Assembly (NCBI GenBank): GCA_048939465.1
Contig: JBHLPL010000042.1
Span: forward strand, 1-15,180
From: Promethearchaeota archaeon
GTDB taxonomy: Archaea; Asgardarchaeota; Odinarchaeia; Odinarchaeales; JBHLKK01
Reading direction: 5' to 3'
Length of the DNA: 15,180 bases
Position numbers and translations under genes: made by a program. Below, in pieces: positions 1 to 15,180 of the stretch (position 1 is the first letter of the stretch; every line of letters starts with the position of its first letter). A model generated the notes under the pieces. The model was not told where the DNA came from and did no database searches. It was given only the letters and a program-made list of their open reading frames with translations.

Positions 1-36
1 GTCCCCAAGAAATACATTACTGTCTGCAGAAATACA
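1..36 (-). mobile_element. N-terminal splicing block of an intein inserted in MCM (CDC21-b type site), truncated by the window edge
   Basis: After ...GKGTTAAGL the frame reads CISADSNVFLGD instead of the conserved TAAV.RD. C-x-x-x-D-[ST]-x-V matches intein block A, and the AAGL|T junction is an established MCM intein site. Only 12 residues are visible. Confidence 0.85.
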
Positions 37-1155
37 TAGACCCGCCGCCGTTGTACCCTTCCCAGAGGTAAAAAGTCCTCTCGGCGCAAGACGTGCTACA
101 TACATAAGTAACTGGCTCTTTGCTGTCCCAGGATCACCCACGAGAAGGACGTTTGGCTCTCCTCTTATCTTCATACCATCGGGAAGAACCTTTGGAACCC
201 CTCCAAATAGTTGCAGTGCAATAGCTTCCTTTATTGGTTCATTGCCAAAAACCGAAGGTGCAATGGATGCCACAACCTTCTGATGAATCCACTCATCCTT
301 AGACAAATCTATGATTACCTTTTCTTCATCCGGAGTGATTTCAACTTTTTCTAGTTCTTTTTCCGATACGTCCACATAGTTTGTGTCCAAGAATACATCA
401 AAGGTTTCGAATTCTCTGCTTCTTTGTTTTGAAGGGTTCGATCTTAAGAGTCCTATTATGGCTATGCGATCCCCCGGTCTGGCAACATCCACAAGATCCC
501 TTCTTAGGATAGCATCCAGGGTTCGTGGTAGCTGTCCTGGCGGCAGCTCCTCTGGCCTCTCCTGAATCCGAATCTTTTGCCAGTCTATGAATTTCGACAT
601 CTCTTCCATAAGGCTGAACGGTCCTTTGCGTCCACAATTGGGACTATCACATACCGGTGGCGGTCTGATGGGCCCCCCTTCCTGAGCCCTTAATGTTATT
701 CTTCCACACCTTTGACACTGAAACGCAGCTTCGATGATTTGTGGTTTGACTTCGCTAGCTCTGGTGAGGATGCCGTCTACCATGATGAACTTTCCTATAT
801 GCTCGGCTCTTAATCTTCTTAATGAAATGTGATTTGTGGTAGGCAGGTTCTTAAATCTGCCAGAGAACCTATCCCCCTTCTTCTCGACACGCTCAACGTA
901 CTCCTTTTCATCTATCTCTATTACGTTTTTCACAGCTTTGGAGGATGCTTCAATGTGCTTTTCTGGTTTTTCGAGCATACTCTTACCGAGTTCTGGGTCA
1001 AATTTGAGCAAATCATCAAAATCAATGACAAGAGAAATATCACCCATAACTGGCATCTGACCTATCTTTTCGCGGTATATGGCTCTGCCTTTCTCATCCT
1101 TATAGGTCTTATAGAAATTCTCAAATCTTTCTACGGGATCAACTTTAAGCTCCAT
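1..1155 (-). CDS. mcm: MCM replicative helicase, N-terminal 385 codons (3' part lies beyond the window start; absent from the ORF track)
   Basis: Manual translation from ATG at 1155 (in-frame GTG alternative at 1164; GGTG/GGAG SD-like sequence upstream) gives MELKVDPVERFENFY...FQCQRCG...VCDSPNCG (C4 zinc finger)...QKIRIQERPEELPPGQLPR (ACL loop)...IAPSVFG...GMKIRGEPNVLLVGDPGTAKSQLL (Walker A)...GLFTSGKGTTAAGL. The frame is open down to base 1. Confidence 0.97.
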   Translation of the reverse strand, partial: MELKVDPVERFENFYKTYKDEKGRAIYREKIGQMPVMGDISLVIDFDDLLKFDPELGKSMLEKPEKHIEASSKAVKNVIEIDEKEYVERVEKKGDRFSGRFKNLPTTNHISLRRLRAEHIGKFIMVDGILTRASEVKPQIIEAAFQCQRCGRITLRAQEGGPIRPPPVCDSPNCGRKGPFSLMEEMSKFIDWQKIRIQERPEELPPGQLPRTLDAILRRDLVDVARPGDRIAIIGLLRSNPSKQRSREFETFDVFLDTNYVDVSEKELEKVEITPDEEKVIIDLSKDEWIHQKVVASIAPSVFGNEPIKEAIALQLFGGVPKVLPDGMKIRGEPNVLLVGDPGTAKSQLLMYVARLAPRGLFTSGKGTTAAGLCISADSNVFLGD

Positions 1156-1166
1156 ATTCTCCACAC

Positions 1167-1700
1167 CTAAAGAATCATTGAACTCCAATCTCTTATTAGC
1201 TTAGCTAACCTTTCGTAAAGCCATAATTCCTCGCTGGTCATTGTTCCGGTAAGGCTTGGATGAATATCTTTCAACGCCATTTTTACCATTTTTGAAAGAC
1301 GAGCGGAAATTAGATCGCGCACAGGCACTTCTATCTGTTCTAGCTTTTGTGATGTGATTGGGGTAGGTTCCTTCTGATTTCTTTCCTTTAGGCTTCTCAA
1401 CTTCTTTCTTATCTCAAAATAGAAGTCCTCATCCAATTCTCCAAGCTTAACATCAGAGGTCTCTTTCCACAGGATGTTGTGTAGTTTAGAAACGTCTATT
1501 TCTTTCTCATCCAGATACTCTGCGATACCATTTTCTACCAGTATGTCGGCTTGCCATCTTGGGATTTCCATTCTGTCTCCTTCTCTAAGCGGCCCAAGTG
1601 CTTGACCTGCAACATTAATCTTATGATGCTCCTTCTTGATTATGATTCTTTCTGGCCTATTCTCGTGTTCGAAACCAAACCTCTCTGGGTTGAACTCCAA
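1167..1700 (-). CDS. gins23: GINS complex subunit, Gins23 (Psf2/Psf3-like, B-domain first)
   Basis: 177 aa with N-terminal B-domain motifs (GPLREGDRMEIPRWQADILVENG) followed by a helical A-domain (KLGELDEDFY). It lies directly upstream of mcm, the conserved gins23-mcm arrangement. TTG start with GGAGGG SD at 1708-1713. Confidence 0.88.
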   Translation of the reverse strand: MEFNPERFGFEHENRPERIIIKKEHHKINVAGQALGPLREGDRMEIPRWQADILVENGIAEYLDEKEIDVSKLHNILWKETSDVKLGELDEDFYFEIRKKLRSLKERNQKEPTPITSQKLEQIEVPVRDLISARLSKMVKMALKDIHPSLTGTMTSEELWLYERLAKLIRDWSSMIL

Positions 1701-1736
1701 TGATCTTCCCTCCAGAATATTAGTGAAAAATAAACA

Positions 1737-1744
1737 TTATAAAA
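1737..1744 (-). promoter_or_regulatory. Candidate TATA box for gins23-mcm
   Basis: Minus-strand TTTTATAA about 37 nt upstream of the gins23 start. Assigned by position only. Confidence 0.4.
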
Positions 1745-1760
1745 CCTAACCCTTCATAGT

Positions 1761-1779
1761 CAGATTAAATATAAATCTG
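1761..1779 (+). promoter_or_regulatory. TATA-like element of the thrC-like/wHTH gene embedded in a CAGATT-N7-AATCTG inverted repeat
   Basis: CAGATT (1761-1766) AAATATA AATCTG (1774-1779). The AT core lies about 35 nt upstream of ATG 1809. Confidence 0.5.
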
Positions 1780-1808
1780 CCCCCTAAAACATCTCGCAGG
1801 AATGAGCT

Positions 1809-3224
1809 ATGAATGAAAGCTATCTAGAATGCCCTCAATGTAAAACCAGCTATGGGGCCTTCCCCCCCAGGTCCAAGTGCTCAGATTGCGGGTCAGCCTT
1901 GGAGTATCAATATGACTACGAAGCACTTAGGCCTGTCGTATCTTTGAAGGGAAGCATAAGCTTCTGGCGTTATGCTTCATTATTGCCCGAAGTAAAAGCC
2001 AAGTACAGGATCTCGTTAGGAGAAGGTGGGACGCCCGTAATAGCAGCAAAACGACTTGCAAAAGAATTAGGTCTTGTGCGATTGGCACTTAAAGATGAGA
2101 CAAGAAATCCCACGAATTCCTTTAGGGACAGAGCAGCAACACTTATGATCTCCAATGCATTTGAATATGGTCACAAACACGTAATCTGTGCCTCTAATGG
2201 AAACCTGGGTGCATCTGTTGCCGCTTATGCCGCCAAAGCAGGTCTCAAATGTAGCGTCATCGTACCTCGGAAGGTCCACGTTGGAAAGCTTGCGCAAATG
2301 TATGCCTATAATGCACTAGTTACTACAAAAGGCGACATTGTGGATGACTCTATAGAACTGGCAGAAAAACTGGCAAGAGAAGAGGATTTGTACCAAGCTA
2401 CGGATGGTCTAAATCCCTTAACTATCGAATCCCAGAAGACAATAGCATTTGAGATCTCGGAGCAAATCGATATTCCTGACTGGATAATTGCTCCTATGGG
2501 AAGCGGGGGTACGGTATATTCCATTTGGAAAGGCTTTAGGGAACTTGAACTGTTGGCTCTTTCTGAGAAGCTGCCAAGAGTAGTTGGAGTTCAGGCTGAG
2601 GGGTGTGCACCCATAGTGAGGGCTTTTGAGAGGAACGGTAGGATCGAGAGTCTCTCCAAAGTGGGAACAGATGCTCTTGCCATTCTTGTAAAACAACCGT
2701 TGAGCGGTGAACGGGCACTAGAGGCAGTCAGGGAATCTGGTGGTCTTGCCACCTCGGTATCCGATGAAGAGATACGAAAAGCCGAACGTCTTATTGCTCA
2801 ATCGGAGGGACTTTTCTCTGAACTAGCTAGTGCTGCGACAATATCTTGTGTTCAGAAGTTGGTGGCAGATGGAACAATCGATTCTCAAGATCGGGTTGCT
2901 TGCTTAATCACTGCTAGTGGTCTAAAGGCCCCCTATGTCCTTGAAGCTCTGATTAGGCATCCAAAAGCTATTGGGATGAGGGGGAAAGTAAGCGTAAAGC
3001 TTAGAGTCCTTCGTCTTCTTGAATTGGGCAAGTCCTACGGCTACCTAATTTGGAACAGCCTAGGCCGCTCTGTAAGCCTTCAGGCAGTCTATCAGCATTT
3101 GACTGAGCTGGAGGAGAAGGATTTGGTATCTTCTAAGGAGGAAGGTAAACGAAAATATTACAGAATCACTAATCGCGGGAAGCGAGTTTTGAACGCTTTA
3201 GAGGAACTTGCTATGCTTTTCTGA
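1809..3224 (+). CDS. Threonine-synthase-like (PLP fold type II) protein with N-terminal Zn ribbon and C-terminal PadR/ArsR-like winged helix; predicted pseudoenzyme and transcription regulator
   Basis: CPQC-x12-CSDC ribbon; SLGEGGTP; LKDETRNPTNSFRDR (canonical SFKDR); ASNGNLGAS; PMGSGGT; ITASGLK. Residues ~395-471 (LRVLRLLELGKSYGYLIW...QAVYQHLTELEEKDLV...RKYYRITNRGKRVL) form a typical wHTH. The symbol thrC is withheld because the catalytic Lys is absent. Confidence 0.88.
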   Translation: MNESYLECPQCKTSYGAFPPRSKCSDCGSALEYQYDYEALRPVVSLKGSISFWRYASLLPEVKAKYRISLGEGGTPVIAAKRLAKELGLVRLALKDETRNPTNSFRDRAATLMISNAFEYGHKHVICASNGNLGASVAAYAAKAGLKCSVIVPRKVHVGKLAQMYAYNALVTTKGDIVDDSIELAEKLAREEDLYQATDGLNPLTIESQKTIAFEISEQIDIPDWIIAPMGSGGTVYSIWKGFRELELLALSEKLPRVVGVQAEGCAPIVRAFERNGRIESLSKVGTDALAILVKQPLSGERALEAVRESGGLATSVSDEEIRKAERLIAQSEGLFSELASAATISCVQKLVADGTIDSQDRVACLITASGLKAPYVLEALIRHPKAIGMRGKVSVKLRVLRLLELGKSYGYLIWNSLGRSVSLQAVYQHLTELEEKDLVSSKEEGKRKYYRITNRGKRVLNALEELAMLF

Positions 3225-3255
3225 TATGGTGATCTTCTGCTTCTAGCACAAGTGT

Positions 3256-3298
3256 TATATACAAGTTATAATTTTATTAAAGTTTGAACTTGTATATA
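3256..3298. promoter_or_regulatory. Perfect 12-bp inverted repeat enclosing a TATA-like box upstream of the ECF S-component gene
   Basis: TATATACAAGTT (3256-3267) and AACTTGTATATA (3287-3298) are exact reverse complements. The 19-nt spacer contains TTTATTAA (3273-3280). SD GGTGA at 3301-3305 and ATG at 3311. Confidence 0.7.
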
Positions 3299-3310
3299 CT
3301 GGTGAAGTAT

Positions 3311-3877
3311 ATGGGAATAATTGACATCATCCGTGAAAAAACCCCGCGATATCCTGCCAGCTTAAATATAGCCCTTATTGCCGTTTTCACACCCCTTACG
3401 ACCGCCTTAACGATGTTTATTCAAGTTCCTGTTCCTGCCACTGAAGGGTACATCAACATAGGTGAGGTCGGCGTCTTTCTATCTGGTCTGCTCTTGGGTC
3501 CAGTGGGAGGTGCGATAGCAGGAGGTGTTGGTTCTGCGCTCGCAGATTGGGTCACAGGTTGGGTCATTTACGTACCTTGGACCTTCGTGATTAAGGGTAT
3601 GGAGGGATTAATAGTTGGACTCTTTAGCAGAAGAAGGACAGCTTTCAATGCAGTTGTAGTCATTGCAGCTGGCCTTTGGATGGTTGCAGGCTACTTCCTG
3701 GTTGAAGGGTTTTTACTATGGGGGGTCGCAGCCGCAGCGATAGAGATTCCTGGAAACCTAGTACAGGTCGGTGTTGGAGCAACTATTGCTTTGCTTGTTG
3801 CTACCCTAGTTAGGCCGGCAATGCCATTTCCCAAGGAAGGTCCTCAAGAAAAGGAAGAGCCTACGACGAAGAGCTAG
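3311..3877 (+). CDS. ECF transporter S-component, resembling the HmpT/PdxU2 (COG4720-like) family
   Basis: About 6 hydrophobic helices; motifs QVPVPATEGYINIGEVGVF, GGVGSALAD, FVIKGMEG, MVAGYF, IPGNLVQ. The start is moved from 3284 to ATG 3311 because of the GGTGA SD. Substrate is not established. Confidence 0.85.
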   Translation: MGIIDIIREKTPRYPASLNIALIAVFTPLTTALTMFIQVPVPATEGYINIGEVGVFLSGLLLGPVGGAIAGGVGSALADWVTGWVIYVPWTFVIKGMEGLIVGLFSRRRTAFNAVVVIAAGLWMVAGYFLVEGFLLWGVAAAAIEIPGNLVQVGVGATIALLVATLVRPAMPFPKEGPQEKEEPTTKS

Positions 3878-3973
3878 CAGTTGCCCGACATTCTCAAATC
3901 TCCTATCTTATTTTGGAACCTTGATTGTAAAATTGACGTCAAAATAAAATAAGAAGATTCCACTTCTGAAAAA

Positions 3974-3996
3974 TTTAAATATATAACTGCGTTATA
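3974..3996 (+). promoter_or_regulatory. TATA box followed by a TATAAC-N3-GTTATA inverted repeat upstream of the metalloprotease gene
   Basis: TTTAAATATATA from 3974; TATAAC 3982-3987 and GTTATA 3991-3996; GGAG SD-like sequence at 4003-4006. Confidence 0.45.
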
Positions 3997-4018
3997 ATAT
4001 TTGGAGATTGGTATTCAT

Positions 4019-4519
4019 ATGGACTTTCAAGAATTAAGAAGACAACTGCCGGATATCTTTGAACGGGTAAAGAGGGATGTTGAAGACGAGACCGGACACC
4101 ATCGAGCTGGTCTTGCTCTTGGCCTCGTAGAAATGGGTATGTTTCGAGGTGGATTCATCGGCGGAATGTTCTTCTCCGGTGGAACAATGATCTTGATGAA
4201 TAGAACACCTCTGCGGATAATCATGGCAGAGCAACCTGATGAAGTCGTCTGGGCCTACAATTATCACATTCTGTTGCATGAGTACCTACATTCACTGGGC
4301 TTTATGGATGAACGTCAGGTCAGAGCACTCACGATCGGAATCAGTCGAAGTGTTTTTGAAGATCCTGGGCATCCTTCAGTAGTCCTTGCTGAGAGGGGCA
4401 TAGGCGCCTTTTTCACGAACTTACCGTTGATCTACGCTCCCCCTGGATTTAGTCCCAAAGGACTGCACATCGATGTCGTGAAGGATTTTGATAAAGGGAG
4501 TCAGACCTACTTCAGTTGA
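4019..4519 (+). CDS. Small soluble zincin-like metalloprotease (hypothetical)
   Basis: HEYLHSLGFMD (His codons 4277 and 4289) fits HExxHxxGxx[H/D]. No obvious signal peptide or TM helix. ATG 4019 is preferred over TTG 4001 because GGAG lies upstream of it. Confidence 0.7.
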   Translation: MDFQELRRQLPDIFERVKRDVEDETGHHRAGLALGLVEMGMFRGGFIGGMFFSGGTMILMNRTPLRIIMAEQPDEVVWAYNYHILLHEYLHSLGFMDERQVRALTIGISRSVFEDPGHPSVVLAERGIGAFFTNLPLIYAPPGFSPKGLHIDVVKDFDKGSQTYFS

Positions 4520-4598
4520 GCTGCAGTCCATTACTGAGACTCATTACTCCCAGAATTATGGCCGTGAACCGTCTCTGCATATGCAAGGTAGTCTGTTC

Positions 4599-5372
4599 TC
4601 AATTAGCCTCTGCCAGTTCGAAATCCATGACGCGAGATTCCTCTTTTATCCACCGTCCTCGTCCTGTCGTTCTAAAAAGCAGTGTGAAGATTATCCCACC
4701 CATGAATCCGCCTATGTTGGCCGTGTTTCCAAATACATAGAACGTACCGAAATTTATCACAAGAAGCGTAAACGCCAACTCGAATAATATAATGACTACC
4801 ACAAAGAACCAAGCAGAGATCCTAGCTGTCCTTATCACAGTACGATAATACATGGTGCCATAATACTCCCTGGCCAGATAATATATCTTAAGCTTTCTTT
4901 TTGGAAAGAAAAAGGCATAGGCTGCCATGATTCCGAATACGGCTCCCGATGATCCCCAAGCTGGGAGGTCCATTGCGGGGGTAAGAAAGGTCACAACTAG
5001 GGCTGAGTGAAATAGACCTCCTATGACTCCACAGAACAGGTAGAATAAGAGGAACAGGACGTTTCCAAAGACATTTTCAGCATCATCTCCAAAAAGGCCG
5101 AGCAGGAACATATAAACTCCAATATGAATCAGACTGAGTGGCCACCCGTCATATAGGCCCACGTGCAAGAATATTGATGTTATTAGTGCGTGAAGATTCT
5201 GCCCATTCATGAGCTGAGACGGTATTAATCCGAAGTCATTCTTGAGAAACGCGTATATCTCTGGACTTATGTTTTCAACAAAATACATTGCCAGGGTAAT
5301 AATTATTATCGCATAGGTGAAGAATGGCTTCGTTACCTTACGAAGTTGCTTTTCTTCGGTCGGTAATGCCAA
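4599..5372 (-). CDS. Rhomboid-family membrane protein, predicted catalytically inactive (pseudoprotease)
   Basis: Rhomboid TM pattern, SIFLH, FGDDAE..FG, FYLFCG, GSSGAVFG (Ser kept), but ANIGG in place of AHxGG and HIGVY in place of HxxxN. TTG start with a GGAG/GAGGGGAG SD. An in-frame TGA just upstream fixes the earliest possible start. Confidence 0.88.
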   Translation of the reverse strand: MALPTEEKQLRKVTKPFFTYAIIIITLAMYFVENISPEIYAFLKNDFGLIPSQLMNGQNLHALITSIFLHVGLYDGWPLSLIHIGVYMFLLGLFGDDAENVFGNVLFLLFYLFCGVIGGLFHSALVVTFLTPAMDLPAWGSSGAVFGIMAAYAFFFPKRKLKIYYLAREYYGTMYYRTVIRTARISAWFFVVVIILFELAFTLLVINFGTFYVFGNTANIGGFMGGIIFTLLFRTTGRGRWIKEESRVMDFELAEAN

Positions 5373-5387
5373 CTCCCCTCATCTCCA

Positions 5388-5425
5388 ATCGTTAAATTCC
5401 CACTGATCGTCAAATTCCCACTGAT
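5388..5425. repeat. 18-bp tandem direct repeat (about 2.1 copies)
   Basis: ATCGTTAAATTCCCACTG ATCGTCAAATTCCCACTG AT, with one mismatch between units. Confidence 0.9.
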
Positions 5426-5588
5426 ATTAGCCACACTTATCATATTTTACTATCGACTAGACTATCCATCTCTGTAATTCTGGTGATTGTTTGAGGGTCC
5501 TCCATCCCCCACTCCGAGCCCCTCGTCCGGCTGCTTTCAAAAATGAGGCAAGAATGTCATTTCTTCTTCCCACTTGCCAGAGGCAGCA

Positions 5589-6317
5589 TCAGTATTCTTC
5601 TACACGGAAATAATACTCATCTGGAAGCTCCTTCTTTTCCTTCCAAGGTCCTCTCCCGGTCAGCTTGAAAATAAGGGTAAACGCTGCTCCTGCAATGAAT
5701 CCCCCTACGTGAGCTGTGTTTGCTATTGAAACGGAGAGACCAAGAGTTATTGAAAATATGGAATACATGACTTCGATTGCTACCAAGAAGGCCACCGCAG
5801 CGAGTGCAGGTAGTTGCACAGGGTAATAATACATGAACATCATGAGTCTCCTTTTCGGAAATGCGAGCGCGTAGGCTGCCATAACTCCGAATATGGCACC
5901 GGAGGCTCCTATAGTCGGGATATTTGCCATACCAGGCAGGAATAATACAGTTATCGCCGAATGAAACAGACCGGCTATGATCCCGCAGAATAGGTAGAAG
6001 GTGAGAAACAGGGGCGATCCAAAGATCCCTTCGGCATCATCCCCAAAGATGAATAGAATGTACATATTCATGAAGATATGAAGCAGCCCGTAGTAGCCCT
6101 CGTAAATACCAGCATGAAGAAACATGGATGAGAGCAGTGTAATTAGGTTTTGCCCACTCATTATCTCCGCAGGTCTAAGGCCGTAGTTATTCACCGCGAA
6201 AAGATAGGTACCAAGATCTAGGTTTTCAAAAATGTACACTATTATGTTAATCAAGATAATTGAGTACGTAACAATAGGTCTTATTTTCTTACGTCCAGGC
6301 TCCGCTTCAAATATCAC
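5589..6317 (-). CDS. Rhomboid intramembrane serine protease, catalytically intact
   Basis: SMFLH, HIFMN oxyanion motif, GASG (Ser codon 5901-5903), AHVGG (His codon 5709-5711). GTG start. Confidence 0.93.
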   Translation of the reverse strand: MIFEAEPGRKKIRPIVTYSIILINIIVYIFENLDLGTYLFAVNNYGLRPAEIMSGQNLITLLSSMFLHAGIYEGYYGLLHIFMNMYILFIFGDDAEGIFGSPLFLTFYLFCGIIAGLFHSAITVLFLPGMANIPTIGASGAIFGVMAAYALAFPKRRLMMFMYYYPVQLPALAAVAFLVAIEVMYSIFSITLGLSVSIANTAHVGGFIAGAAFTLIFKLTGRGPWKEKKELPDEYYFRVEEY

Positions 6318-6340
6318 CTTTCATACACCTGCGGGAATCA

Positions 6341-6389
6341 CTTTCCAAATGTTTGGAAGGTTATTATTTCTGCCCTATTTAAACTTTTT
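6341..6389 (-). promoter_or_regulatory. BRE/TATA promoter of the rhomboid pair with a palindrome at the predicted start site
   Basis: Minus strand AAAAAG (6384-6389) followed by TTTAAATA (6376-6383). The near-perfect palindrome CTTTCCAAATGTTTGGAAGG lies at 6341-6360. Confidence 0.6.
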
Positions 6390-6408
6390 AAGCCATTGAA
6401 TTTGTACT

Positions 6409-8232
6409 TCAGAGCACGGTTACGGATTTAGCAAGATTCCTGGGTTGATCGGGGTCATGCCCTCTCAGCACTGCCGCATAATAAGCAAGCAGCTGCAGAG
6501 GAACAACATAAGGTATCGGGGCTAATGTTTCTGGAACTGCCTTTGGTATATTAAATACCGTGTCTGCTATACCTGCCACTTCTTTGTCACCATGCTCAGC
6601 TACAGCTATTATTCTTGCTCCTCTTGCTTTCATTTCCATGATATTCCCGATAATCTTATGATGGGTTTTATCCGGAGGAGTTACGAAGACGACAGGAAAC
6701 CCTGTCTCCACAAGAGCTATTGGACCATGTTTGGATTCTCCGGCTGGATAACCCTCTGCATGAATGTAAGAGATTTCTTTGAGTTTTAAAGCCCCCTCCA
6801 TGGCTGTGGCCATGTTGATTCCTCTTCCAAGGAAGAGGAAGTCAGGACTCTTTGCATATTCCTTTGCAGCCGTTTTGACCGCATTCTCTTCTCTTTTTAT
6901 CACCCTTTGGACGATTTCTGGTAAGCCTTCCAGGCCTCTCATCGACTCTTTAAACTCTGAATCGACTAAAGTCCCCGCGTAATTGGCAAGGTGTAGGCTG
7001 ATGAGTCCCAAGCTGGCCAGTTGAACTAAAAAAGTCTTTGTGGCAGCAACACCTATTTCTGGACCCGCGTGAGTGTAAAACACCTTATCTGCCCTTCTGG
7101 TAATTGAGCTCCCGATGGTATTTGTTACGCAAATTACCTTTGCCCCCGTCTCTCTGGCATGTCTTAGTGCCACAAGAGTATCTGTGGTCTCTCCAGATTG
7201 GCTGACGGCTAACACGACTGAGTTCTCGTTAATTGCTTTCCCAACAGCGTCTGAAAATTCTGAAGATATTACTGCTTGAGCAGGAGTATTTGTCAACTCG
7301 GCAAACATGTATTTGCCAGCTATCCCTGCATGATTTGCTGTCCCTGCGGCGGTAATATAGATATCATTCGCATCGTGTAACATCTTAACGACTTCATTCA
7401 AAGTTTCTCTCTTCGCTCTCAGCGTATCCCTCAGTGCTCTAGGCTGTTCATGAATCTCTTTGAGCATAAAATGCGGAAATCCGCCCTTTTGGGCCATTTC
7501 TACCGTCCATGATACAGCCGAGGGATTTCTTGCAATCGGTTTTTCATCTAAAATGGATTCGATTCTGTAACTGTTAAGCGTAAGTGTAACAACCTCCCCA
7601 TCATGAACGAATACGGCTTTGTTCGTCATCGGCAGAAATGCAGGAATATCAGATGCACAAAACGCCGCTCCATCTTTAACTCCCAGAACCAAAGGACTTT
7701 CGTTTTTAGCGCAAATCAATTTATCGCTTTCGCCAACGTACAGAGTAACTATTGAATAGAAGCCTTCTAATTTCAGCAAAGCCTCCTTGACCGCTGTCTT
7801 TAAATTACATCCCTTTTCAATCGCTTCTTCAATTAGATGGGGGATTACTTCAGTATCTGTTTCAGATCTAAAGCGGTGCCCTCTTTCCTCAAGTTCTCTT
7901 CTCAATTCTGCAAAGTTCTCAATGATTCCATTGTGCACAACTGCGATTTCTTCCGTGCAGTCCACTTGGGGATGCGCATTTTCCCTTGAAGGAGCACCAT
8001 GTGTTGCCCATCTAGTATGTCCAATTCCTATGTTACCTTGCAAACCGTCAAGTTTGAGTCTTGCACTGACTTCATCAATCTTTCCCTTATCCTTTTTGAT
8101 TAAGAGTCTGCCGTTGTGAACAGTGACTAATCCGACGGAGTCGTAGCCGCGGTATTCCAGTCTTTTTAGAGACTCTCTCAGTAGTGCGGCTACTTCCCCT
8201 TCTTCCAGTAGGATTCCAATTATCCCACACAT
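6409..8232 (-). CDS. glmS: Glutamine--fructose-6-phosphate aminotransferase (isomerizing)
   Basis: MCGIIG (Ntn Cys), GHTRWATHG, NAHP, VVHNGIIEN, SETDTEVI, SQSGET, EGALKLKEISYIHAEG, PRNLAKSVTV; 607 aa. Confidence 0.98.
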   Translation of the reverse strand: MCGIIGILLEEGEVAALLRESLKRLEYRGYDSVGLVTVHNGRLLIKKDKGKIDEVSARLKLDGLQGNIGIGHTRWATHGAPSRENAHPQVDCTEEIAVVHNGIIENFAELRRELEERGHRFRSETDTEVIPHLIEEAIEKGCNLKTAVKEALLKLEGFYSIVTLYVGESDKLICAKNESPLVLGVKDGAAFCASDIPAFLPMTNKAVFVHDGEVVTLTLNSYRIESILDEKPIARNPSAVSWTVEMAQKGGFPHFMLKEIHEQPRALRDTLRAKRETLNEVVKMLHDANDIYITAAGTANHAGIAGKYMFAELTNTPAQAVISSEFSDAVGKAINENSVVLAVSQSGETTDTLVALRHARETGAKVICVTNTIGSSITRRADKVFYTHAGPEIGVAATKTFLVQLASLGLISLHLANYAGTLVDSEFKESMRGLEGLPEIVQRVIKREENAVKTAAKEYAKSPDFLFLGRGINMATAMEGALKLKEISYIHAEGYPAGESKHGPIALVETGFPVVFVTPPDKTHHKIIGNIMEMKARGARIIAVAEHGDKEVAGIADTVFNIPKAVPETLAPIPYVVPLQLLAYYAAVLRGHDPDQPRNLAKSVTVL

Positions 8233-8390
8233 GGTTGATGTGGTCTCCAGACATTTGCTTCAGTCTTGTTGATCCTAAATAAGCAACTTAAATAAACCTT
8301 ATTAAGATCCTTTGCTTGAGATTTCTGATATCTTATTAACATCGCCCAACAGTTATTAATTTGTTGGACGCTTCTTAAAATACGTAAAAT

Positions 8391-8405
8391 CACAAAATTT
8401 ATAAA
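8391..8405 (+). promoter_or_regulatory. Candidate BRE/TATA for tuf
   Basis: CACAAAA followed by TTTATAAA (8398-8405), about 83 nt upstream of the tuf ATG; SD GGAGGG at 8473-8478. TTTATAAA is self-complementary, so its direction is inferred. Confidence 0.45.
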
Positions 8406-8487
8406 GTTGGTTTATGCCACTATCTTAGCCAAACAAGTCAAGAACCTCAATAATGAATAAAAAAGAGCTATTGGAGGGAAAAAACTT

Positions 8488-9786
8488 ATGTCTGATAAGA
8501 AGCCCCACCTAAACCTAGTCGTCATCGGCCACGTAGACCATGGCAAAAGTACCCTAATGGGGCACGTGCTTTTCAAAACCGGTGCAGTAACCGATGCTGA
8601 GATGCGCAAGTTAGAATCCCTTGCTACCGAATACGATAAATCAAGCTTCAAGTTCGCATTCGTACTTGACCGTTTAAAGGAAGAACGCGAAAGGGGTCTG
8701 ACTATTGATCTGTTCTACAAGAAATTCGAAACCGAAAAATACTACTTCACGATCATTGATGCTCCTGGGCACAGAGACTTCATCAAGAACATGATTACAG
8801 GTACAAGCCAGGCAGACGGCGCTCTTCTTGTGGTGTCAGCAAAGAAAGGTGAATTCGAAGCAGGAATAGGTCCCGGCGGACAGACTCGTGAGCATGCTTA
8901 TCTAGCTCGTACGCTAGGAGTCGATCAGCTGGTTGTAGCCATAAACAAGATGGATGACCCGTCAGTGAAGTGGGATCAAAAACGATTTGAGCAGGTCAAG
9001 GAAGGCGTTCTAGACATGCTTAAACCCATCTACCAGAAGAAGGTCGAAGATATAAACTTCGTTCCGGTATCTGCATGGACTGGCGATAACTTCACAGAAC
9101 TCAGTGACAAGATGCCCTGGTATAAAGGCCCAACATTAATCGGAGCTCTTGATCTACTGCATGTTCCCGAAAAACCGGTCAAACTGCCTCTCCGTATTCC
9201 AGTTGAAGCTGTATTTACAATAACTGGAGTTGGAACAGTCCCATGCGGTCGAGTCGAAACTGGTGTACTCAAAGTCGGAGACAATCTCATATTTGAACCA
9301 ACAGGAAAATCTGGTGAAGTTAAGACTATCGAGATGCATCACGAATCTCTTCCTTCAGCAGGACCTGGTGACAACATTGGCTTTAACATGCGTGGTCTGA
9401 GCAGAGCCGATATTCGAAGAGGGGATGTGGCTGGTCATTCGACAAAGCCTCCAACAGTCGTAAAGGATTTCACTGGTCGTATCCTTGTTCTGAGTCATCC
9501 AACTGCTATTGCGAAGGGATATACTCCAGTAATTCATGCCCATACTGCCCAGATAGCATGCAAGTTCGAGGAAATAATAAGCAAATTTGATCCGAAAACG
9601 GGAGCAAAAGTCCAGGACAAACCCGACTTCATCAAGACTGGCGATGGAGCTCTAGTCAAAATGGTACCCACAAGACCGATGGTACTTGAGAAGACAAAAG
9701 AAATTCCTCCGCTTGGTCGATTCGCAATCAGAGATATGGGACGGACTGTTGCGGTAGGTGTGGTCGAAGATTTGACGCCCCGTTAA
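8488..9786 (+). CDS. tuf: Translation elongation factor aEF-1alpha
   Basis: GHVDHGKST, ERERGLTID, DAPGHRDF, NKMD, GEFEAG insert, GTVP.GRVETG, PGDNIGFN, LGRFAIRDMG; 432 aa; followed by rps10. Confidence 0.99.
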   Translation: MSDKKPHLNLVVIGHVDHGKSTLMGHVLFKTGAVTDAEMRKLESLATEYDKSSFKFAFVLDRLKEERERGLTIDLFYKKFETEKYYFTIIDAPGHRDFIKNMITGTSQADGALLVVSAKKGEFEAGIGPGGQTREHAYLARTLGVDQLVVAINKMDDPSVKWDQKRFEQVKEGVLDMLKPIYQKKVEDINFVPVSAWTGDNFTELSDKMPWYKGPTLIGALDLLHVPEKPVKLPLRIPVEAVFTITGVGTVPCGRVETGVLKVGDNLIFEPTGKSGEVKTIEMHHESLPSAGPGDNIGFNMRGLSRADIRRGDVAGHSTKPPTVVKDFTGRILVLSHPTAIAKGYTPVIHAHTAQIACKFEEIISKFDPKTGAKVQDKPDFIKTGDGALVKMVPTRPMVLEKTKEIPPLGRFAIRDMGRTVAVGVVEDLTPR

Positions 9787-9800
9787 TAAACTAAACCGTA

Positions 9801-9819
9801 TTTCTTCCTTTGTTTTTTT
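9801..9819 (+). terminator. Possible oligo-T archaeal terminator between tuf and rps10
   Basis: TTTCTTCCTTTGTTTTTTTG about 15 nt after the tuf stop. Archaeal intrinsic terminators are typically oligo-T. Confidence 0.4.
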
Positions 9820-9859
9820 GAAGCAAAGATTCTAAAGCGTATATAATGAGGAAACAGGG

Positions 9860-10168
9860 ATGCCCCAAAAAGCTAGAATCAGAATTTCAAGCACTGATCG
9901 AAAGATGTTAGATGGCGTATGTGGGCAGATTAGTTCAATCACCAAAAGGACAGGTGTGCGCATATCCGGCCCGGTTCCGCTGCCTACGAAGAAACTCAGA
10001 GTTCCTCTACGTAAGACTCCATGTGGCGAAGGAACAGCTACGTGGGAGAAATGGGAATTGCGTATCCATAAAAGACTCATCGATATTGATGCTGATGAGC
10101 GAACCATGCGTCAAATAATGCGCATACGCATTCCGCCGAAGGTTTTTATTGAAGTCGAGCTCCTATGA
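9860..10168 (+). CDS. rps10: 30S ribosomal protein uS10
   Basis: [40 protein letters not shown]; 102 aa; canonical position after tuf. Confidence 0.99.
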
Positions 10169-10319
10169 GCAGACTCTTATTCATAAAAGAACGCCTCTCT
10201 GTTTCTTGCCCCGAATACATAGGTTAATCTATAATCTTAATAACCATCTGTAGGTAAGATATTACTCCAAAACGTTTCACTGCTCATTGATATTGCAGAT
10301 TGAAGGAGGGATAATAAAC

Positions 10320-12191
10320 ATGGGCATTCCCGTTTTCGCAAAGGATTCTCCAGGCGAGCAAGTTCTTCTGTGGGGGAATGAGGCCATAGCCAGAGGTGCT
10401 ATCGAAGCTGGCGTGAATGTTGCGGCATCTTATCCGGGTACCCCCGCTTCCGAAATTCTGACAAGTCTAGCGAGGGTGGCCAAAGATTTTGACATGTATG
10501 CTGAGTGGTCTACAAATGAGAAAGTTGCCATGGAGGTTGCCATTGGAGCTGCCATTACCGGTTTGAGATCGATGGTTTCTATGAAACATGTCGGGCTCAA
10601 CTGGGCTGCAGATCCGCTTATGTCCCTAAATCAATCTGGCGTCCGCGGTGGCATGGTTATCGTCACAGCTGACGATCCAAGCGCACACAGCTCTCAGAAT
10701 GAACAGGACAACCGATTTTATGCCATGTTTTCTGAGTTGCCAATGTTGGAGCCGGCAGATCCCCAAGAAGCAAAAAACATGACTGCCGAGGCCTTCGACC
10801 TATCGGAAGAGTTAGAACTTCCTGTTATGATTCGGTCAGTAACTAGGTTAAGTCACTCAAGGGGCAACGTTACGTTGGGTCAAATAAGACCAACAAAGCA
10901 GAAGGCCGAATTCGTACGGGATCCCCATAGATGGGTTATGGTCCCCTCTTGGGCTCATCATAGACACAAGTGGCTCCACGAAAAGCAGAAACTAATTCAA
11001 GAGCTAACGCTGGCTCTACCTTACAATGAGCTAAGAATAAGAGGAAAGGAGTTAGGTATCGTTGGATGCGGTTCCGCCTCTAATTATGCGCTAGATGCCT
11101 TGAAGATTCTTGAACTTAACGATAAGGTTTCATACCTCAAAATCGGCGTTGCCAATCCGGCTCCTACTCCTCTAGTAAAGACTTTGCTACAGAGCGTAGA
11201 GAGAGTCCTAGTCTTGGAGGAAGTCGAGCCTTTTGTGGAGAGGAGGCTTAAAGAAATAGCCTATGACTTAAAAGCTAGTGTAGACATAAGGGGTAGACTG
11301 ACCGGTGACTTACCTAGGGAGTGGGAGTTAAACGCTGAGCTGACCGTTTCTGCCATTTCTAAGCTACTGGAACTCGAACAGAATGAAAGCTTCGAGTTGT
11401 CGAAGAGAAGTAGTGATTTGATACCTCCAAGAAGCATTGTAATGTGCCCTGGCTGTCCTCATAGAGCAACCTTTTTTGCAATTCGCCGAGCAATCCGAAA
11501 ACCGATTATTACGGGCGACATAGGATGCTACACTCTTAGTGCGTTTCCGCCGTTGGAGATGCAGGACACCTGCTTCTGCATGGGCGGAAGCATAGGCATT
11601 GGGATCGGTGTGTCCAAAGCGGGGGTTGAAAATCCCGTAATCGCAACCTTGGGAGACTCTACTTTCTTCCACGCAGGAATGCCTGCATTGGTCAATGCAG
11701 TATTTAATAAAGCGAATCTAACGATCATCGTTTTTGATAACCAGACTGTAGCTATGACCGGCTTTCAGCAGAGTCCAAGCGCTGGAAAAACAGCAATGGG
11801 CGAAACCACACACATAATAAGAATCGAGGAGATTGCCAGGGCATCTGGCATAGATTTTGTCGAAGTCATTGATCCTTTTGACATCGAGAAAAGCATCGAA
11901 GTAATTAAGAAAGCGGTAGAACACAATGGTCCCGCTGTTGTGGTTTCTAGAAGACTCTGTGCGTTGCTACAGACCAAAATCGATGAAAGAGAAGGAAAAC
12001 CCAAGGTTCTCTATGCGGTTGATTCCGAAAAATGCACGGGTTGCAAAATCTGTCTACGTGACTTCGGCTGCCCTGCAATAGTGTGGGATGAAGGAATCGA
12101 GAAGACGAATGTTGAGCCGACGCTTTGCGTTGGATGCGGTGTTTGTGCTGAAATCTGTCCGTATCAGGCTTACTCCGAAGTGGAGGATTAG
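10320..12191 (+). CDS. iorA: Indolepyruvate:ferredoxin oxidoreductase alpha subunit
   Basis: GNEAIARGA, YPGTPASE, EWSTNEKVA, MKHVGLN, DDPSAHSSQNEQD, MCPGCPHR, GDIGCY, GDSTFFHAG...N (ThDP motif), and a C-terminal 2x[4Fe-4S] domain (CTGCKIC...CP, CVGCGVCAEICP). Start moved to ATG 10320 because of SD AGGAGGG at 10304-10310. Confidence 0.96.
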   Translation: MGIPVFAKDSPGEQVLLWGNEAIARGAIEAGVNVAASYPGTPASEILTSLARVAKDFDMYAEWSTNEKVAMEVAIGAAITGLRSMVSMKHVGLNWAADPLMSLNQSGVRGGMVIVTADDPSAHSSQNEQDNRFYAMFSELPMLEPADPQEAKNMTAEAFDLSEELELPVMIRSVTRLSHSRGNVTLGQIRPTKQKAEFVRDPHRWVMVPSWAHHRHKWLHEKQKLIQELTLALPYNELRIRGKELGIVGCGSASNYALDALKILELNDKVSYLKIGVANPAPTPLVKTLLQSVERVLVLEEVEPFVERRLKEIAYDLKASVDIRGRLTGDLPREWELNAELTVSAISKLLELEQNESFELSKRSSDLIPPRSIVMCPGCPHRATFFAIRRAIRKPIITGDIGCYTLSAFPPLEMQDTCFCMGGSIGIGIGVSKAGVENPVIATLGDSTFFHAGMPALVNAVFNKANLTIIVFDNQTVAMTGFQQSPSAGKTAMGETTHIIRIEEIARASGIDFVEVIDPFDIEKSIEVIKKAVEHNGPAVVVSRRLCALLQTKIDEREGKPKVLYAVDSEKCTGCKICLRDFGCPAIVWDEGIEKTNVEPTLCVGCGVCAEICPYQAYSEVED

Positions 12192-12197
12192 TACACG

Positions 12198-12842
12198 ATG
12201 TCCCCCGTCAAAAGGCTTGAGGAATTCAATCTGTTAATTGCAGGTGTCGGCGGTCAGGGCATAGTTCTGGCCGCCACAATCTTAGCAAATGCCGCTGTAA
12301 AGAATGGAATAAAGGTGAGGGCGGCTGATACGTTCGGCGCAGCTCAAAGAGGTGGTCCTGTTCTGAGTCACATAAGAATGGGCAGTGAGGTCTACGGACC
12401 TTTAGTTCCTAAAGGACGGTGTGATGTTCTTTTGGGATTTGAGCCTATTGAGGCTCTGAGAGTAGGGGAGGAATATCTATCCTCCAGAAGTTATGTACTG
12501 ATGAACACTAAACCCATCTTCTCAGTTGATGTAACAACAGGAAAAGCGTCCTATCCCCCAATAAGAAAAATCATCGATTCGTTAAGAGATATAACCAAAG
12601 ATGTGGTAACAATAGAAGCGACCAGTCTTGCAGTAAGAACCGGGAACGTTGTAAGTACTAATGTTGTCATGCTTGGAGGATTGTCGGCAAGCGGTAGGAT
12701 TCCTCTGGCGATTGAGGATATTAAAGACTCAATTAAAGAGATCATTCCTAAAGGCAAGCAGAAAATGAACTTGAACGCGTTTGATTTCGGAGTTAAGGCA
12801 ATAAAGGAGAAGTTAGAAGAATCCAAATCAAGAAGACAGTGA
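12198..12842 (+). CDS. iorB: Indolepyruvate:ferredoxin oxidoreductase beta subunit
   Basis: IAGVGGQGIVLA, GAAQRGGPVLSHIRMG, DVLLGFEPIEALR, NVVMLG, NLNAFDFG; 6 nt downstream of iorA. Confidence 0.96.
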   Translation: MSPVKRLEEFNLLIAGVGGQGIVLAATILANAAVKNGIKVRAADTFGAAQRGGPVLSHIRMGSEVYGPLVPKGRCDVLLGFEPIEALRVGEEYLSSRSYVLMNTKPIFSVDVTTGKASYPPIRKIIDSLRDITKDVVTIEATSLAVRTGNVVSTNVVMLGGLSASGRIPLAIEDIKDSIKEIIPKGKQKMNLNAFDFGVKAIKEKLEESKSRRQ

Positions 12843-14209
12843 GAAGATGCTTCTCATCGCTCCACATATGGACAGGAGGGACAAAAACGAAGAAACGAAA
12901 CGATCGGTATTGGGATAAAGAGGTAGAGACGCTTCCTTTGCCAAGATTAAGAGATCTGCAACTCAAGAGATTGAAAAGTATAGTAAAATACGCATACGAA
13001 AATGTTTCCTTGTACAAGAGGAAGTTTGATGAAGCAGATGTAAAACCAGATGAAATCGAGAAGCTTGAGGACATCACAAGACTTCCATTTACTAGAAAGG
13101 AGGAACTGAGAGACAGTTACCCCTTTGGAATGGTCGCAGTACCTTTTGATAAAATAGTCAGGATTCACGCAACTTCGGGTACAACTGGAAAACCGACCGT
13201 CGCATGTTATACCAAAGACGATATTGAGACTTGGACCGACTTAATGGCAAGGTGCATGTATACCGCGGGAGTAAGGCAAGATGATATCGTTCAGAATGCC
13301 TATGGGTACGGGCTATTCACGGGAGCTTTAGGGTTTCACTACGGTGGAGAGAGGATAGGATCGACTATTATACCCACTGGCAGTGGAAACACGCAAAGAC
13401 AATTGATGATAATAAAAGACTTTGGGACGACCGTTCTATGTTCCACCCCATCTTTTGCTGCATACTTGGCAGAAGTTGCGAGAGAGCAGGGTATGATCAT
13501 GAGTGAAGATGCGAGAATAAGACTTGGATTGTTTGGAGCTGAAGCATGGTCTGATGAATTAAGGAAAAGAATAGAACAGGAATACAATATGGCTGCTATT
13601 GACTTCTACGGACTTGCAGAGATAATTGGTCCCGGAGTCTCGGTTGAATGTTACGAAAGAAATGGATTACACCTGTGGTCTGATCATTTCTACGCTGAGA
13701 TAGTCGATCCCGCGACAGGCATTGTGTTGAATCCTGGTGAAAGGGGCGAACTGGTCATAACAACCTTAACAAAAGAGGGCATACCGGTAATAAGGTACAG
13801 AACGAAAGATCTGACAATTATTGATGAAGAAGAATGTAGCTGCGGTAGGACTCATCCGCGTATTGCACGAATACTTGGAAGATCGGATGATATGATAGTC
13901 ATACGAGGGGTAAATGTGTTTCCAAGCCAAATCGAGCACGCATTAATCGGTATAAAGGGTGTTACCTTAAATTATCAGATAGTCCCAAAGAGAGCGGTCA
14001 GATTGGATGTTGAGATATTAGATCATCTTCTTGTGAGAGTTGAGCCTGAAGAAGAAATATGGGAGAATAAGAGGCTGGGGGATGAGCTTAAGAGAGAGAT
14101 CACTGAGGAATTGAAAAGCGCCCTTGGTCTGAGAACGGAAGTTGAGCTAGCTGCTCCTGGTAGTCTTCCCAGATCAACTGGAAAGGCGAAAAGAATCGTT
14201 GAGGAGTAG
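12839..14209 (+). CDS. paaK: Phenylacetate--CoA ligase-like (aryl-acetate CoA ligase, ANL superfamily); start position uncertain
   Basis: RIHATSGTTGKP, AYGYGLFTGALG, GLFGAEAWS, YGLAEIIGPG, LVITTLTKEGIPVIRYRT.D, GRSDDMIVIRGVNVFPSQIE, GKAKRI. The GTG start overlaps the iorB stop (GTGA). Confidence 0.93.
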   Translation: MRRCFSSLHIWTGGTKTKKRNDRYWDKEVETLPLPRLRDLQLKRLKSIVKYAYENVSLYKRKFDEADVKPDEIEKLEDITRLPFTRKEELRDSYPFGMVAVPFDKIVRIHATSGTTGKPTVACYTKDDIETWTDLMARCMYTAGVRQDDIVQNAYGYGLFTGALGFHYGGERIGSTIIPTGSGNTQRQLMIIKDFGTTVLCSTPSFAAYLAEVAREQGMIMSEDARIRLGLFGAEAWSDELRKRIEQEYNMAAIDFYGLAEIIGPGVSVECYERNGLHLWSDHFYAEIVDPATGIVLNPGERGELVITTLTKEGIPVIRYRTKDLTIIDEEECSCGRTHPRIARILGRSDDMIVIRGVNVFPSQIEHALIGIKGVTLNYQIVPKRAVRLDVEILDHLLVRVEPEEEIWENKRLGDELKREITEELKSALGLRTEVELAAPGSLPRSTGKAKRIVEE

Positions 14210-14215
14210 GATTAT

Positions 14216-15180
14216 TTGAACACAGTAGAAGCCTTTACCGACGCCCCTCGTTTCAAGTGGTTAGTTCTGGCTCTGACTAGTGCTTCTGCCCTCCTGGCAT
14301 ACATTCACGTTTTTATGTATCCGCCACTGATTCCGAGTTTCATCTCTGAGCTTGATATAACTTACGCTGAAGCGTCATTATTAATCGTGTCTTTTGGTTT
14401 TGCATATGCTTCCAGCGGAGTTGTTTGGGGACACATCATCAATCGCTACGGTGCTAGGTGGATTCTTTTGATCGGGCTATTTTGCATTTCAATTCCTCAA
14501 TTTATCATCGGCTTATTGCCCCCTTTTTACATAATGATAGCACTCAGATTTATCCTTGGCCTCGGAGTGTCCAATATCCGTGTAACGGGGATAAGTTATC
14601 TGCATTCATGGTTCTTTTCTTCGGAGGTAAGCAAGGCAATAGGCATTTTCAACGCATCCGTTCTCGTAGGAATGTCAATTGCTCTTGCGACACCTCCTAT
14701 TCTCCAGATCTATTTTGGGTGGCTATTCCCTTTCATGTTTTTTTCGCTGATTACCTTCTTCTTCATAATGGTCTTTGCTGCTTTAACGCAGAAAACACCT
14801 GGCTCAATGCAGCTAATGTTTGAGAAGAACTCAGAGAAGGAGTCGGAGGGGTCTCCCGGGTCTAACGAGTCTGTATATCGAAACCCCTCCGTCATAATAC
14901 TGGGATTTATGGCATTCTCTCTATACTTCGCCGTCTACGCCGCCCTATCGTGGATACCATCTTACGTTTATGAGGTGGGTAATCTGTCTGAACTCGAAAG
15001 GGGTATCGTACTTCCCTTTTTGACTCTTGTAGGGATACCCGCTTCTTTGACAGGTGGATTCATTGGCGACAGAACTGGAAAGAGAGTCCTGGTTACGGCT
15101 GTGGGGTTGGGGATTAATGTTAGTATATTGATTCTTGCTGGCCCCCCGATAACAAACCTCGCCTACCTGCTGGGCACGCT
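14216..15180 (+). CDS. MFS transporter, truncated at the window end (absent from the ORF track)
   Basis: Manual translation from TTG 14216 (SD GAGGAG at 14201-14206) gives MNTVEAFTDAPRFKWLVLALT...WGHIINRYGARW (motif A)...LRFILGLG...GGFIGDRTGKR (second motif A). The frame is open for 321 codons with repeated TM helices. Confidence 0.92.
   Translation, partial: MNTVEAFTDAPRFKWLVLALTSASALLAYIHVFMYPPLIPSFISELDITYAEASLLIVSFGFAYASSGVVWGHIINRYGARWILLIGLFCISIPQFIIGLLPPFYIMIALRFILGLGVSNIRVTGISYLHSWFFSSEVSKAIGIFNASVLVGMSIALATPPILQIYFGWLFPFMFFSLITFFFIMVFAALTQKTPGSMQLMFEKNSEKESEGSPGSNESVYRNPSVIILGFMAFSLYFAVYAALSWIPSYVYEVGNLSELERGIVLPFLTLVGIPASLTGGFIGDRTGKRVLVTAVGLGINVSILILAGPPITNLAYLLGT

Follow-up and report, generated by a model that had tools for sequence, protein, structure and literature searches.

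A threonine synthase fold without its Schiff-base lysine, joined to a PadR-type winged helix: a putative vitamin B6-sensing regulator in Archaea

In the bacterial MocR/GabR/PdxR regulators, the fold of a pyridoxal 5'-phosphate (PLP) enzyme has become the sensory part of a one-component transcription factor, and PdxR controls pdxST and, in predicted regulons, also PdxU-type vitamin B6 transporters (PMC5320631; PMC9997740). In Archaea, a vitamin-enzyme fold, that of riboflavin kinase, is fused to a winged helix-turn-helix (wHTH) domain in RbkR, which is reported to be a bifunctional vitamin B2 protein that keeps its enzyme activity and controls vitamin synthesis and transport genes via a local operator (PMC5397151). 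In a survey of PLP synthesis and salvage from 2023, PdxR and PdxR2, both bacterial, are the only regulators listed, and B6 transport is described as poorly studied (PMC9997740). Here we analyse an apparent thrC gene in a window of 15,180 nucleotides, the whole stretch studied (contig JBHLPL010000042.1, positions 1 to 15,180, of the Promethearchaeota archaeon assembly GCA_048939465.1, order Odinarchaeales), the product of which joins a threonine synthase (ThrC) fold to a PadR-type wHTH. We consider it rather probable that this protein, in the following the regulator, senses B6 as a homodimer and locally represses the adjacent PdxU2-type transporter gene, where the identity of the ligand, the binding of DNA and the direction of control are what we infer. 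To our knowledge, none of the transcription factors known from Archaea serves vitamin B6 homeostasis, and the family of the regulator would fill this gap.

Its resemblance to the described systems is in each case partial. With ThrC (TIGR00260; PRK05638, PRK08197, PRK06450), the regulator shares the fold, clear homology, an archaeal-type N-terminal zinc ribbon and the dimer interface, but it has no catalytic lysine, the residues aligned with the phosphate contacts are replaced, and it possesses the additional PadR domain. MocR proteins combine an N-terminal GntR-type wHTH with an aminotransferase-like domain of fold type I, in which a PLP-binding lysine holds the cofactor covalently, whereas the archaeal regulator has a lysine-less, ThrC-like domain of fold type II and its wHTH is of the PadR type and C-terminal; GntR was not among the 18 Pfam matches listed for it at E <=1. 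PadR repressors share the PF03551 match, the layout of helix, wing and C-terminal helix, and predicted dyad operators that overlap the promoter; canonical representatives, however, have about 110-180 residues, an N-terminal wHTH and their own C-terminal helices for dimerization, whereas here the wHTH is appended to a dimeric sensor of 390 residues. Compared with RbkR, the regulator differs in fold and wHTH family, its fold is apparently inactive, and its vitamin would be B6. Because it fails every MocR feature as well as the catalytic features of ThrC, the regulator would be PdxR-like in action yet built independently, and would constitute a second PLP-enzyme fold turned sensor, of fold type II and with the covalent link lost. 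A preliminary description of the window, made from its letters, had already proposed a ThrC fold turned into a one-component regulator and an independent fold-type II counterpart of MocR/GabR/PdxR. The domain composition just described agrees with the latter proposal, and the former is favoured by the loss of the lysine together with the PadR tail, the kept pocket, a lysine-bearing paralogue, a linked target gene and a genome-unique palindrome, all of which are presented below. The preliminary description also knew of no functional characterization, and our search of the full-text literature found no description of a ThrC-PadR regulator.

The central observation concerns residue 106. The codons at 2106-2132 read N-P-T-N-S-F-R-D-R, and in HMMER alignments to three solved threonine synthases, those of M. 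tuberculosis (2d1f), A. aeolicus (2zsj) and B. subtilis (6cgq), which are 36-41% identical to the regulator, R106 falls on the lysine of SFKDR. In the same alignments, ASNGN takes the place of ASTGN and NPLTIESQKT that of NPvRIEGQKT, with Thr205 on the ThrC arginine, while PMGSGG aligns with PVGNAG and TASGLK with TGNGLK. The preliminary description had read all of these differences from the sequence, namely an AGG-encoded arginine at the PLP-lysine position, the missing substrate-phosphate arginine, the altered ASTGN motif and an otherwise retained pocket (the asparagine of GN, PMGSGG and the threonine of TASGLK), and it had placed a PadR/ArsR-like wHTH at 2991-3221; the codons and alignments bear it out on each, and the PF03551 match lies inside that range. 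The N-terminal zinc ribbon is a feature that it had not listed. The O-phosphohomoserine phosphate is presumably bound by the threonine of ASTGN, the Asn-Ser preceding NP, the arginine of NP-x-R-IEG and the asparagine of the GNAG loop, as in the T. thermophilus ThrC structures, and the residues of the regulator aligned with these contacts are different ones (N130, D199, G200, T205 and S232). In fold-type II enzymes, we take the cofactor to be held by the glycine loop at its phosphate, by the asparagine of S-x-G-N at O3' and by the Ser/Thr before G-L-K at the ring nitrogen.

These features characterize the whole family. Thousands of matches came from a search against 5.8 billion proteins, and the best 120 were aligned with the regulator (121 sequences, MAFFT). 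All 120 combine PALP and PadR and are 463-494 residues long; those that carry a name, from Promethearchaeota, Odinarchaeia, Freyarchaeota and Bathyarchaeia, are called 'threonine synthase'. Arginine occupies position 106 in 121 of 121 sequences, including relatives of 91% and 82% identity. Invariant are further the four cysteines, S104, D107, R108, N132, G231, G233, E338, G371, L372 and K373, and T368 is kept in 120 of the 121, whereas position 205, the arginine of ThrC, is V, A, T, I or S. Position 130 is mostly asparagine, and position 200 has the consensus E. In 78 related loci, Arg106 is encoded by AGA (38), AGG (30), CGA (7), CGG (2) and CGT (1), and such a use of five different codons indicates synonymous drift under selection for arginine. 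A sequencing error or a pseudogene, which we had also considered as explanations for the arginine, are rejected on the same two grounds, its presence in all 121 homologues and the five codons. Within the phylum of the host, about 57 of 121 sampled genomes carry a full-length homologue including the wHTH.

On a wider scale, 1.84 billion representatives at 50% identity were searched exhaustively with HMMER; this yielded 1533 proteins with E <=1e-30, the best 150 of which were aligned. Among these, tail-less ThrC proteins keep the lysine at position 106 in 70 of 71 cases, whereas about 72 of the 74 PadR-tailed representatives have lost it. Judged by this tabulation, loss of the lysine accompanies the PadR tail across the superfamily. 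Among the proteins with a tail that matches the wHTH in this alignment, the residue at position 106 is L (18), R (16), I (14), V (6), T (5), M (4), F (3) or one of several residues that occur once each, and lysine in eight cases. Six of these eight proteins (P0188, P0198, P0207, P0219, P0254 and P0261) are ThrC homologues of 602-633 residues with a long C-terminal extension, which in P0188, the one tested, is a LeuA allosteric (dimerization) domain and not a wHTH; this would be a different regulatory fusion to a ThrC that retains its catalytic lysine. Only two true combinations of lysine and PadR are left, P0123 (locus L104) and P0124 (L105), PALP-PadR proteins with an SFKDR motif on contigs of <2 kb, which could be intermediates or bifunctional forms. 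Pfam recognized PadR in nine of the nine PadR-tailed representatives checked, whichever residue they have at position 106. In an 83-sequence alignment across the subfamilies, D107, R108, G131, G233, E338, G371, K373 and H430 are invariant, and S104, N132, G231 and T368 nearly so. A kept PLP pocket, a dispensable lysine and the replacement of the residues aligned with the phosphate site together mark the protein as a probable pseudoenzyme to which a PLP-like ligand would still bind.

The Schiff-base lysine is required for catalysis in fold-type II enzymes. The genome of the window, an assembly of 1.96 Mb in 152 contigs that is 91% complete, encodes a second ThrC-like protein on contig C53, which has 372 residues, an SFKDRG motif and 415 bits on PRK06450 (cut-off 301), and from this comparison of the two sequences the apparent thrC gene of the window is probably not the threonine synthase of this genome. 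That the regulator should nevertheless be an enzyme, a threonine synthase or another PLP-dependent activity with a merely autoregulatory wHTH, appears to us extremely improbable. It does score 218.6 bits on TIGR00260 (thrC), above the cut-off of 167.1, and comes close to that of PRK05638 (411.4 versus 421 bits), a model of 442 positions that extends over the entire protein, wHTH included; 'threonine synthase' is also the database name of the family, and P0123 and P0124 combine a PadR tail with the lysine. Yet the lysine is missing in all close homologues and replaced by aliphatic residues in sister subfamilies, the residues aligned with the contacts to the O-phosphohomoserine phosphate are replaced, the paralogue has the lysine, and no operator-like repeat was found at 1690-1830, upstream of the regulator gene, where autoregulation would be expected to act. 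If the family is indeed devoid of this activity, the name 'threonine synthase' is wrong for hundreds of archaeal genes, and metabolic reconstructions that rely on it for Asgard and Bathyarchaeia genomes are distorted.

The predicted structure is in keeping with a ThrC-like dimer that carries a DNA-binding module. An AlphaFold2 (AF2) model obtained from the 83-sequence alignment has a mean predicted local distance difference test (pLDDT) of 91.6 and a predicted TM-score (pTM) of 0.80. Its top Foldseek matches in the PDB are the threonine synthases 2zsj, 6nmx, 2d1f and 1v7c (target TM-score 0.82-0.87), and it superimposes on the closed forms 6nmx and 1v7c with a root-mean-square deviation of 1.9 A. 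The wHTH consists of three helices (396-405, 411-417 and 424-436), a wing (440-453) and a further helix at the C-terminus (455-470); we read the stretch A426-Y428-Q429-H430-L431 in the model as its likely recognition helix, and this stretch is invariant in 21 diverse homologues, with H430 invariant in all 83. Modelled as two copies with PLP included, the protein gave an interaction score (ipSAE) of 0.82 in three runs, compared with 0.00 for the best of three controls; the runs share at least 67% of their contacts, and the pLDDT of the partner is at least 86. The mark applied to such dimers is passed by 20 of 30 solved homo-pairs and by 1 of 23 single chains. The confident interface lies within the ThrC-like core (residues 70-168, 327-336 and 370-381), and as ThrC dimers have already been solved, the pass may reflect likeness to known complexes and is likeness, not proof.

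Clues to the function come from the gene that follows. We examined 80 loci from species-representative genomes out of 200 matching stretches, from Bathyarchaeia, Asgard lineages, Thermoproteota and Geothermarchaeales, and clustered their open reading frames (ORFs) without prior labels. The commonest neighbour is the S-component of an energy-coupling factor (ECF) transporter (PF07155), which lies directly downstream on the same strand in 63 of the 80 loci, as it does in the window, where its ATG at 3311 agrees with the 188-residue gene call in the relative L100. Several of the exceptions have the same gene in another state, broken or masked in L046, L064 and L072 and convergent in L013. The pairing, in divergent orientation, extends to distant subfamilies of about 40% identity, in the isoleucine form P0134 and the leucine form P0136. 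As the flanks differ between Bathyarchaeial and Asgard loci, it is not simply inherited synteny. The Freyarchaeal locus L013 further contains, directly upstream of the S-component gene and on the same strand, a gene with DUF4147 and MOFRL domains (glycerate-kinase-like; 10381-11775, minus strand), and a similar-looking gene, judged by eye, stands right after the regulator in another Asgard genome (G011:C2, locus L112).

This neighbour, together with one further locus, points to vitamin B6. PdxU and PdxU2, two of only three characterized prokaryotic B6 transporters, both belong to PF07155/COG4720 (PMC9997740), and the only PDB relative of the S-component is chain S of 4HZU, the HmpT/PdxU2 protein of L. 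brevis (E 2e-19), from which pyridoxamine was extracted as the substrate (PMC4860826). HmpT has six conserved residues in its pocket (PMC4860826), and four of them, E41, Y120, N140 and Q143, are kept in the S-component. At locus L079, the same regulator and dyad precede not a transporter gene but pdxS (PF01680, 342 bits) and pdxT (PF01174, 184 bits), and it is this combination, a PdxU2/HmpT-type S-component and pdxST with one regulator, by which the neighbourhood indicates B6. PdxS was not found in the genome of the window (91% complete), in that of a congener (82%) or in two genomes of the same order, one of which is a single 1.4-Mb contig (98%), and no PdxT scored above the cut-off; the failure to find PdxS fits a dependence on B6 uptake. 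That PdxS is apparently lacking hints at B6 auxotrophy, which is useful to know for cultivation attempts. The genome also encodes a kinase of the Phos_pyr_kin family and, in a search for the ECF module, two EcfT (CbiQ) proteins on contigs C4 and C55. Other Asgard genomes with the regulator do possess PdxS.

A candidate operator separates the two genes. Within the palindrome at 3256-3298, perfect 12-nt arms, TATATACAAGTT (3256-3267) and AACTTGTATATA (3287-3298), flank an A/T-rich, TATA-like stretch. The arms have no other copy in the 1.96-Mb genome, and since copies with one mismatch stand in unrelated contexts and have no partner arm, no wider regulon is predicted. In the relative of 91% identity, both 10-nt arm cores are intact, and 7 of the 19 spacer bases have changed. 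Four Odin-like genomes of the order of the window contain a 14-bp palindrome, ACTTGTATACAAGT (at most one mismatch), once per genome and 26-40 nt past the regulator stop. In Bathyarchaeia, a 22-bp dyad, TAGTATAGTT-NN-AACTATACTA, immediately follows a TATA-like box rich in A and T and ends up 15-45 nt ahead of the S-component start codon. Allowing up to four mismatches, this dyad occurs in 67 of the 80 loci, always upstream of the S-component gene, and it stays with that gene even in three loci where 0.5-1.2 kb separate the gene from the regulator. Each of five whole genomes has it at the regulator locus and nowhere else, as one site or as two sites 17 nt apart, and the backwards control gave 0. 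The half-site has diverged, so we do not claim the same motif for the window and for Bathyarchaeia; the window site could also be read from its sequence as two overlapping dyads of the type AAGTT-NN-AACTT at 3258-3279 and 3275-3296, offset by 17 nt like the tandem Bathyarchaeial sites.

A palindrome between two co-directional genes could also fold as an RNA hairpin, 43 bp in extent, and DNA binding by the wHTH is so far a prediction. One might therefore picture the protein as a B6 binder that is not a transcription factor, serving in PLP storage or delivery or as an ECF accessory, with the palindrome as a hairpin or terminator. We regard this as very unlikely. The PadR wHTH is complete and its presumed recognition helix invariant, and the changes in the arms among relatives are non-compensatory, as one would expect of a site bound by a protein and not of an RNA hairpin. 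Furthermore, the Bathyarchaeial dyad tracks the target gene and not the 3' end of the regulator gene, divergent arrangements have no upstream gene to terminate, and a promoter and terminator scan designed for bacteria, which is not informative in an archaeon, showed no terminator at the palindrome.

For the B6-sensing repressor that we favour, we thus envisage the following course of events. The ThrC-derived domain would be devoid of catalysis, having no Schiff-base lysine and other residues at the positions aligned with the O-phosphohomoserine phosphate site, but would retain the cofactor pocket and most likely bind a phosphorylated B6 vitamer non-covalently, either PLP or possibly pyridoxamine 5'-phosphate (PMP) or pyridoxine 5'-phosphate (PNP). 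A flexible linker would join this sensor to the PadR-type wHTH, which would bind the inverted repeat at 3256-3298, around and just past the TATA-like box of the next gene. With ample ligand, the bound protein would block the promoter and thereby repress the PdxU2/HmpT-type S-component for B6 uptake. The direction of control is predicted from known archaeal repressors, as the candidate site lies over the TATA box and the transcription start. With its regulator, candidate operator and target, the system is compact and directly accessible to tests in vitro.

Several observations weigh against this reading, and some of them speak for a rival in which the regulator still acts on the adjacent transporter gene but senses no free B6 vitamer, its ligand being an amino acid, phosphorylated or not, in the former substrate site, an adduct of PLP with an amino acid, or a pyrimidine related to thiamine, hydroxymethylpyrimidine (HMP). 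HmpT was initially predicted to be a carrier of HMP (PMC4860826), and of its conserved pocket residues two are changed in our S-component, H84 to lysine and Q87 to glutamate. An AIR-synthase-domain (AIRS/AIRS_C) protein of about 340 residues is encoded in 53 of the 80 loci and follows the S-component in 41 of them (e.g. L021:3256-4275); its gene, most often co-transcribed in Bathyarchaeia, has no known B6 role, and its nearest relatives are HypE and ThiL. Moreover, the substrate-site residues are remodelled and yet conserved (N130, E200 in most, NPL-x-IE-x-QKT strictly), which suggests a selected second pocket. The link to pdxST was seen in 1 of 80 loci only, and the absence of PdxS from draft genomes is no proof of true absence. 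As for the operator, the relative of 82% identity has three non-compensating changes in the arms, the arm spacing of 31 bp from centre to centre is unusual for a wHTH dimer, and when the Bathyarchaeial operator matrix was run on the genome of the window, its top matches were unrelated and the window site was unranked. As this matrix misses the window site, the window operator rests on its own palindrome, its uniqueness in the genome and the footprint in three sequences.

On balance, we consider a ligand other than a free B6 vitamer rather unlikely. L079 has this operator and regulator in front of pdxS-pdxT; the PLP-holding residues are the best conserved across all subfamilies, whereas position 106 varies freely; and the AIRS protein, below every cut-off, stays far under that of ThiL (107 versus 184 bits). 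Its gene lies outside the window, with an unlinked orthologue in the same genome (C104:4790-5776), upstream of which no operator-like site was seen. The AIRS-domain protein is a candidate for an unrecognized B6 salvage enzyme.

It is tempting to extend the B6-sensing repressor to the whole PALP-PadR superfamily in Bathyarchaeia, many Asgard archaea and other Thermoproteota. These proteins would then be the missing archaeal B6 sensor, a lysine-less, non-covalent reader of the pool of PLP (or PMP/PNP) that switches uptake or pdxST via a dedicated operator, a generalization that we put forward tentatively and regard as possible but somewhat doubtful. If it is true, the AIR-synthase-like and DUF4147/MOFRL genes in the operons of the regulator are unrecognized B6 salvage enzymes.

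A further palindrome was observed in a complete Freyarchaeota genome (G043, locus L118), where a genome-unique dyad, TAGTATACAA-N8-TTGTATAGTA, is situated between a TATA-like box and the Shine-Dalgarno sequence of pdxS (C1:3164286-3164313). It has the heptamer TTGTATA/TATACAA in common with the window arms. No matching site was found near the regulator or the S-component operon of this genome, so that the dyad is not tied to the regulator and is suggestive only.

The coordinates of the features are collected in Table 1.

Table 1. Features of the regulator locus, in positions of the window
Feature	Position	Strand	Evidence and remarks
Regulator gene	1809..3224	+	471 aa; open ORF; zinc ribbon, lysine-less ThrC-fold putative sensor and PadR wHTH
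N-terminal four-Cys zinc ribbon (C8, C11, C24, C27)	1830..1889	+	Cys invariant in 121 homologues; weak Zn-ribbon Pfam matches
ThrC-like fold-type II PLP domain, residues 68-368, proposed ligand sensor	2010..2912	+	PF00291 (PALP), E 3.9e-72
AGG codon, Arg106, at the Schiff-base Lys position	2124..2126	+	Sequence; alignment to three solved ThrC
Flexible linker between sensor and wHTH, residues 385-393	2961..2987	+	Sole AF2 segment with pLDDT <50
PadR-type wHTH, residues 400-462	3006..3194	+	PF03551, 38.2 bits, cut-off 27
43-bp imperfect palindrome, candidate operator	3256..3298		Repeat search: 21-nt arms, 86% complementary; in 86-nt spacer
GGTGA, Shine-Dalgarno-like, 5 nt before the transporter start	3301..3305	+	Sequence; kept in relatives L111 and L100
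Target gene, ECF transporter S-component, PdxU/PdxU2(HmpT) family, 188 aa	3311..3877	+	PF07155, 121 bits

Beyond these features, the window shares with other Odinarchaeial loci (L101/L102, L010 and L027) the gene order MCM, GINS (Sld5-like), regulator, S-component, rhomboid and GlmS, the outer genes of which lie on the minus strand at 1-1700 and 4599-8232. Two rhomboid paralogues stand in tandem in the window (4599-5372 and 5589-6317). The MCM gene of the window crosses its edge; those of L101 and L103 have inteins. Between the S-component and rhomboid genes, a plus-strand ORF of 172 residues (4001-4519) has no match in Pfam or NCBIfam, but features an H-E-x-x-H motif (LLHEYLHSLG), so that its product may be small and metallopeptidase-like; the equivalent Odin loci lack this ORF and have the rhomboid gene directly behind that of the transporter. 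The remainder of the window (8488-15178, plus strand) encodes, by Pfam, ribosomal protein S10, an AMP-binding ligase (phenylacetate-CoA-ligase-like), a major facilitator superfamily transporter and a two-subunit 2-oxoacid:ferredoxin oxidoreductase (TPP, POR, 4Fe-4S), probably of the indolepyruvate type, and begins with EF-1alpha (8488-9786), which was identified by eye.

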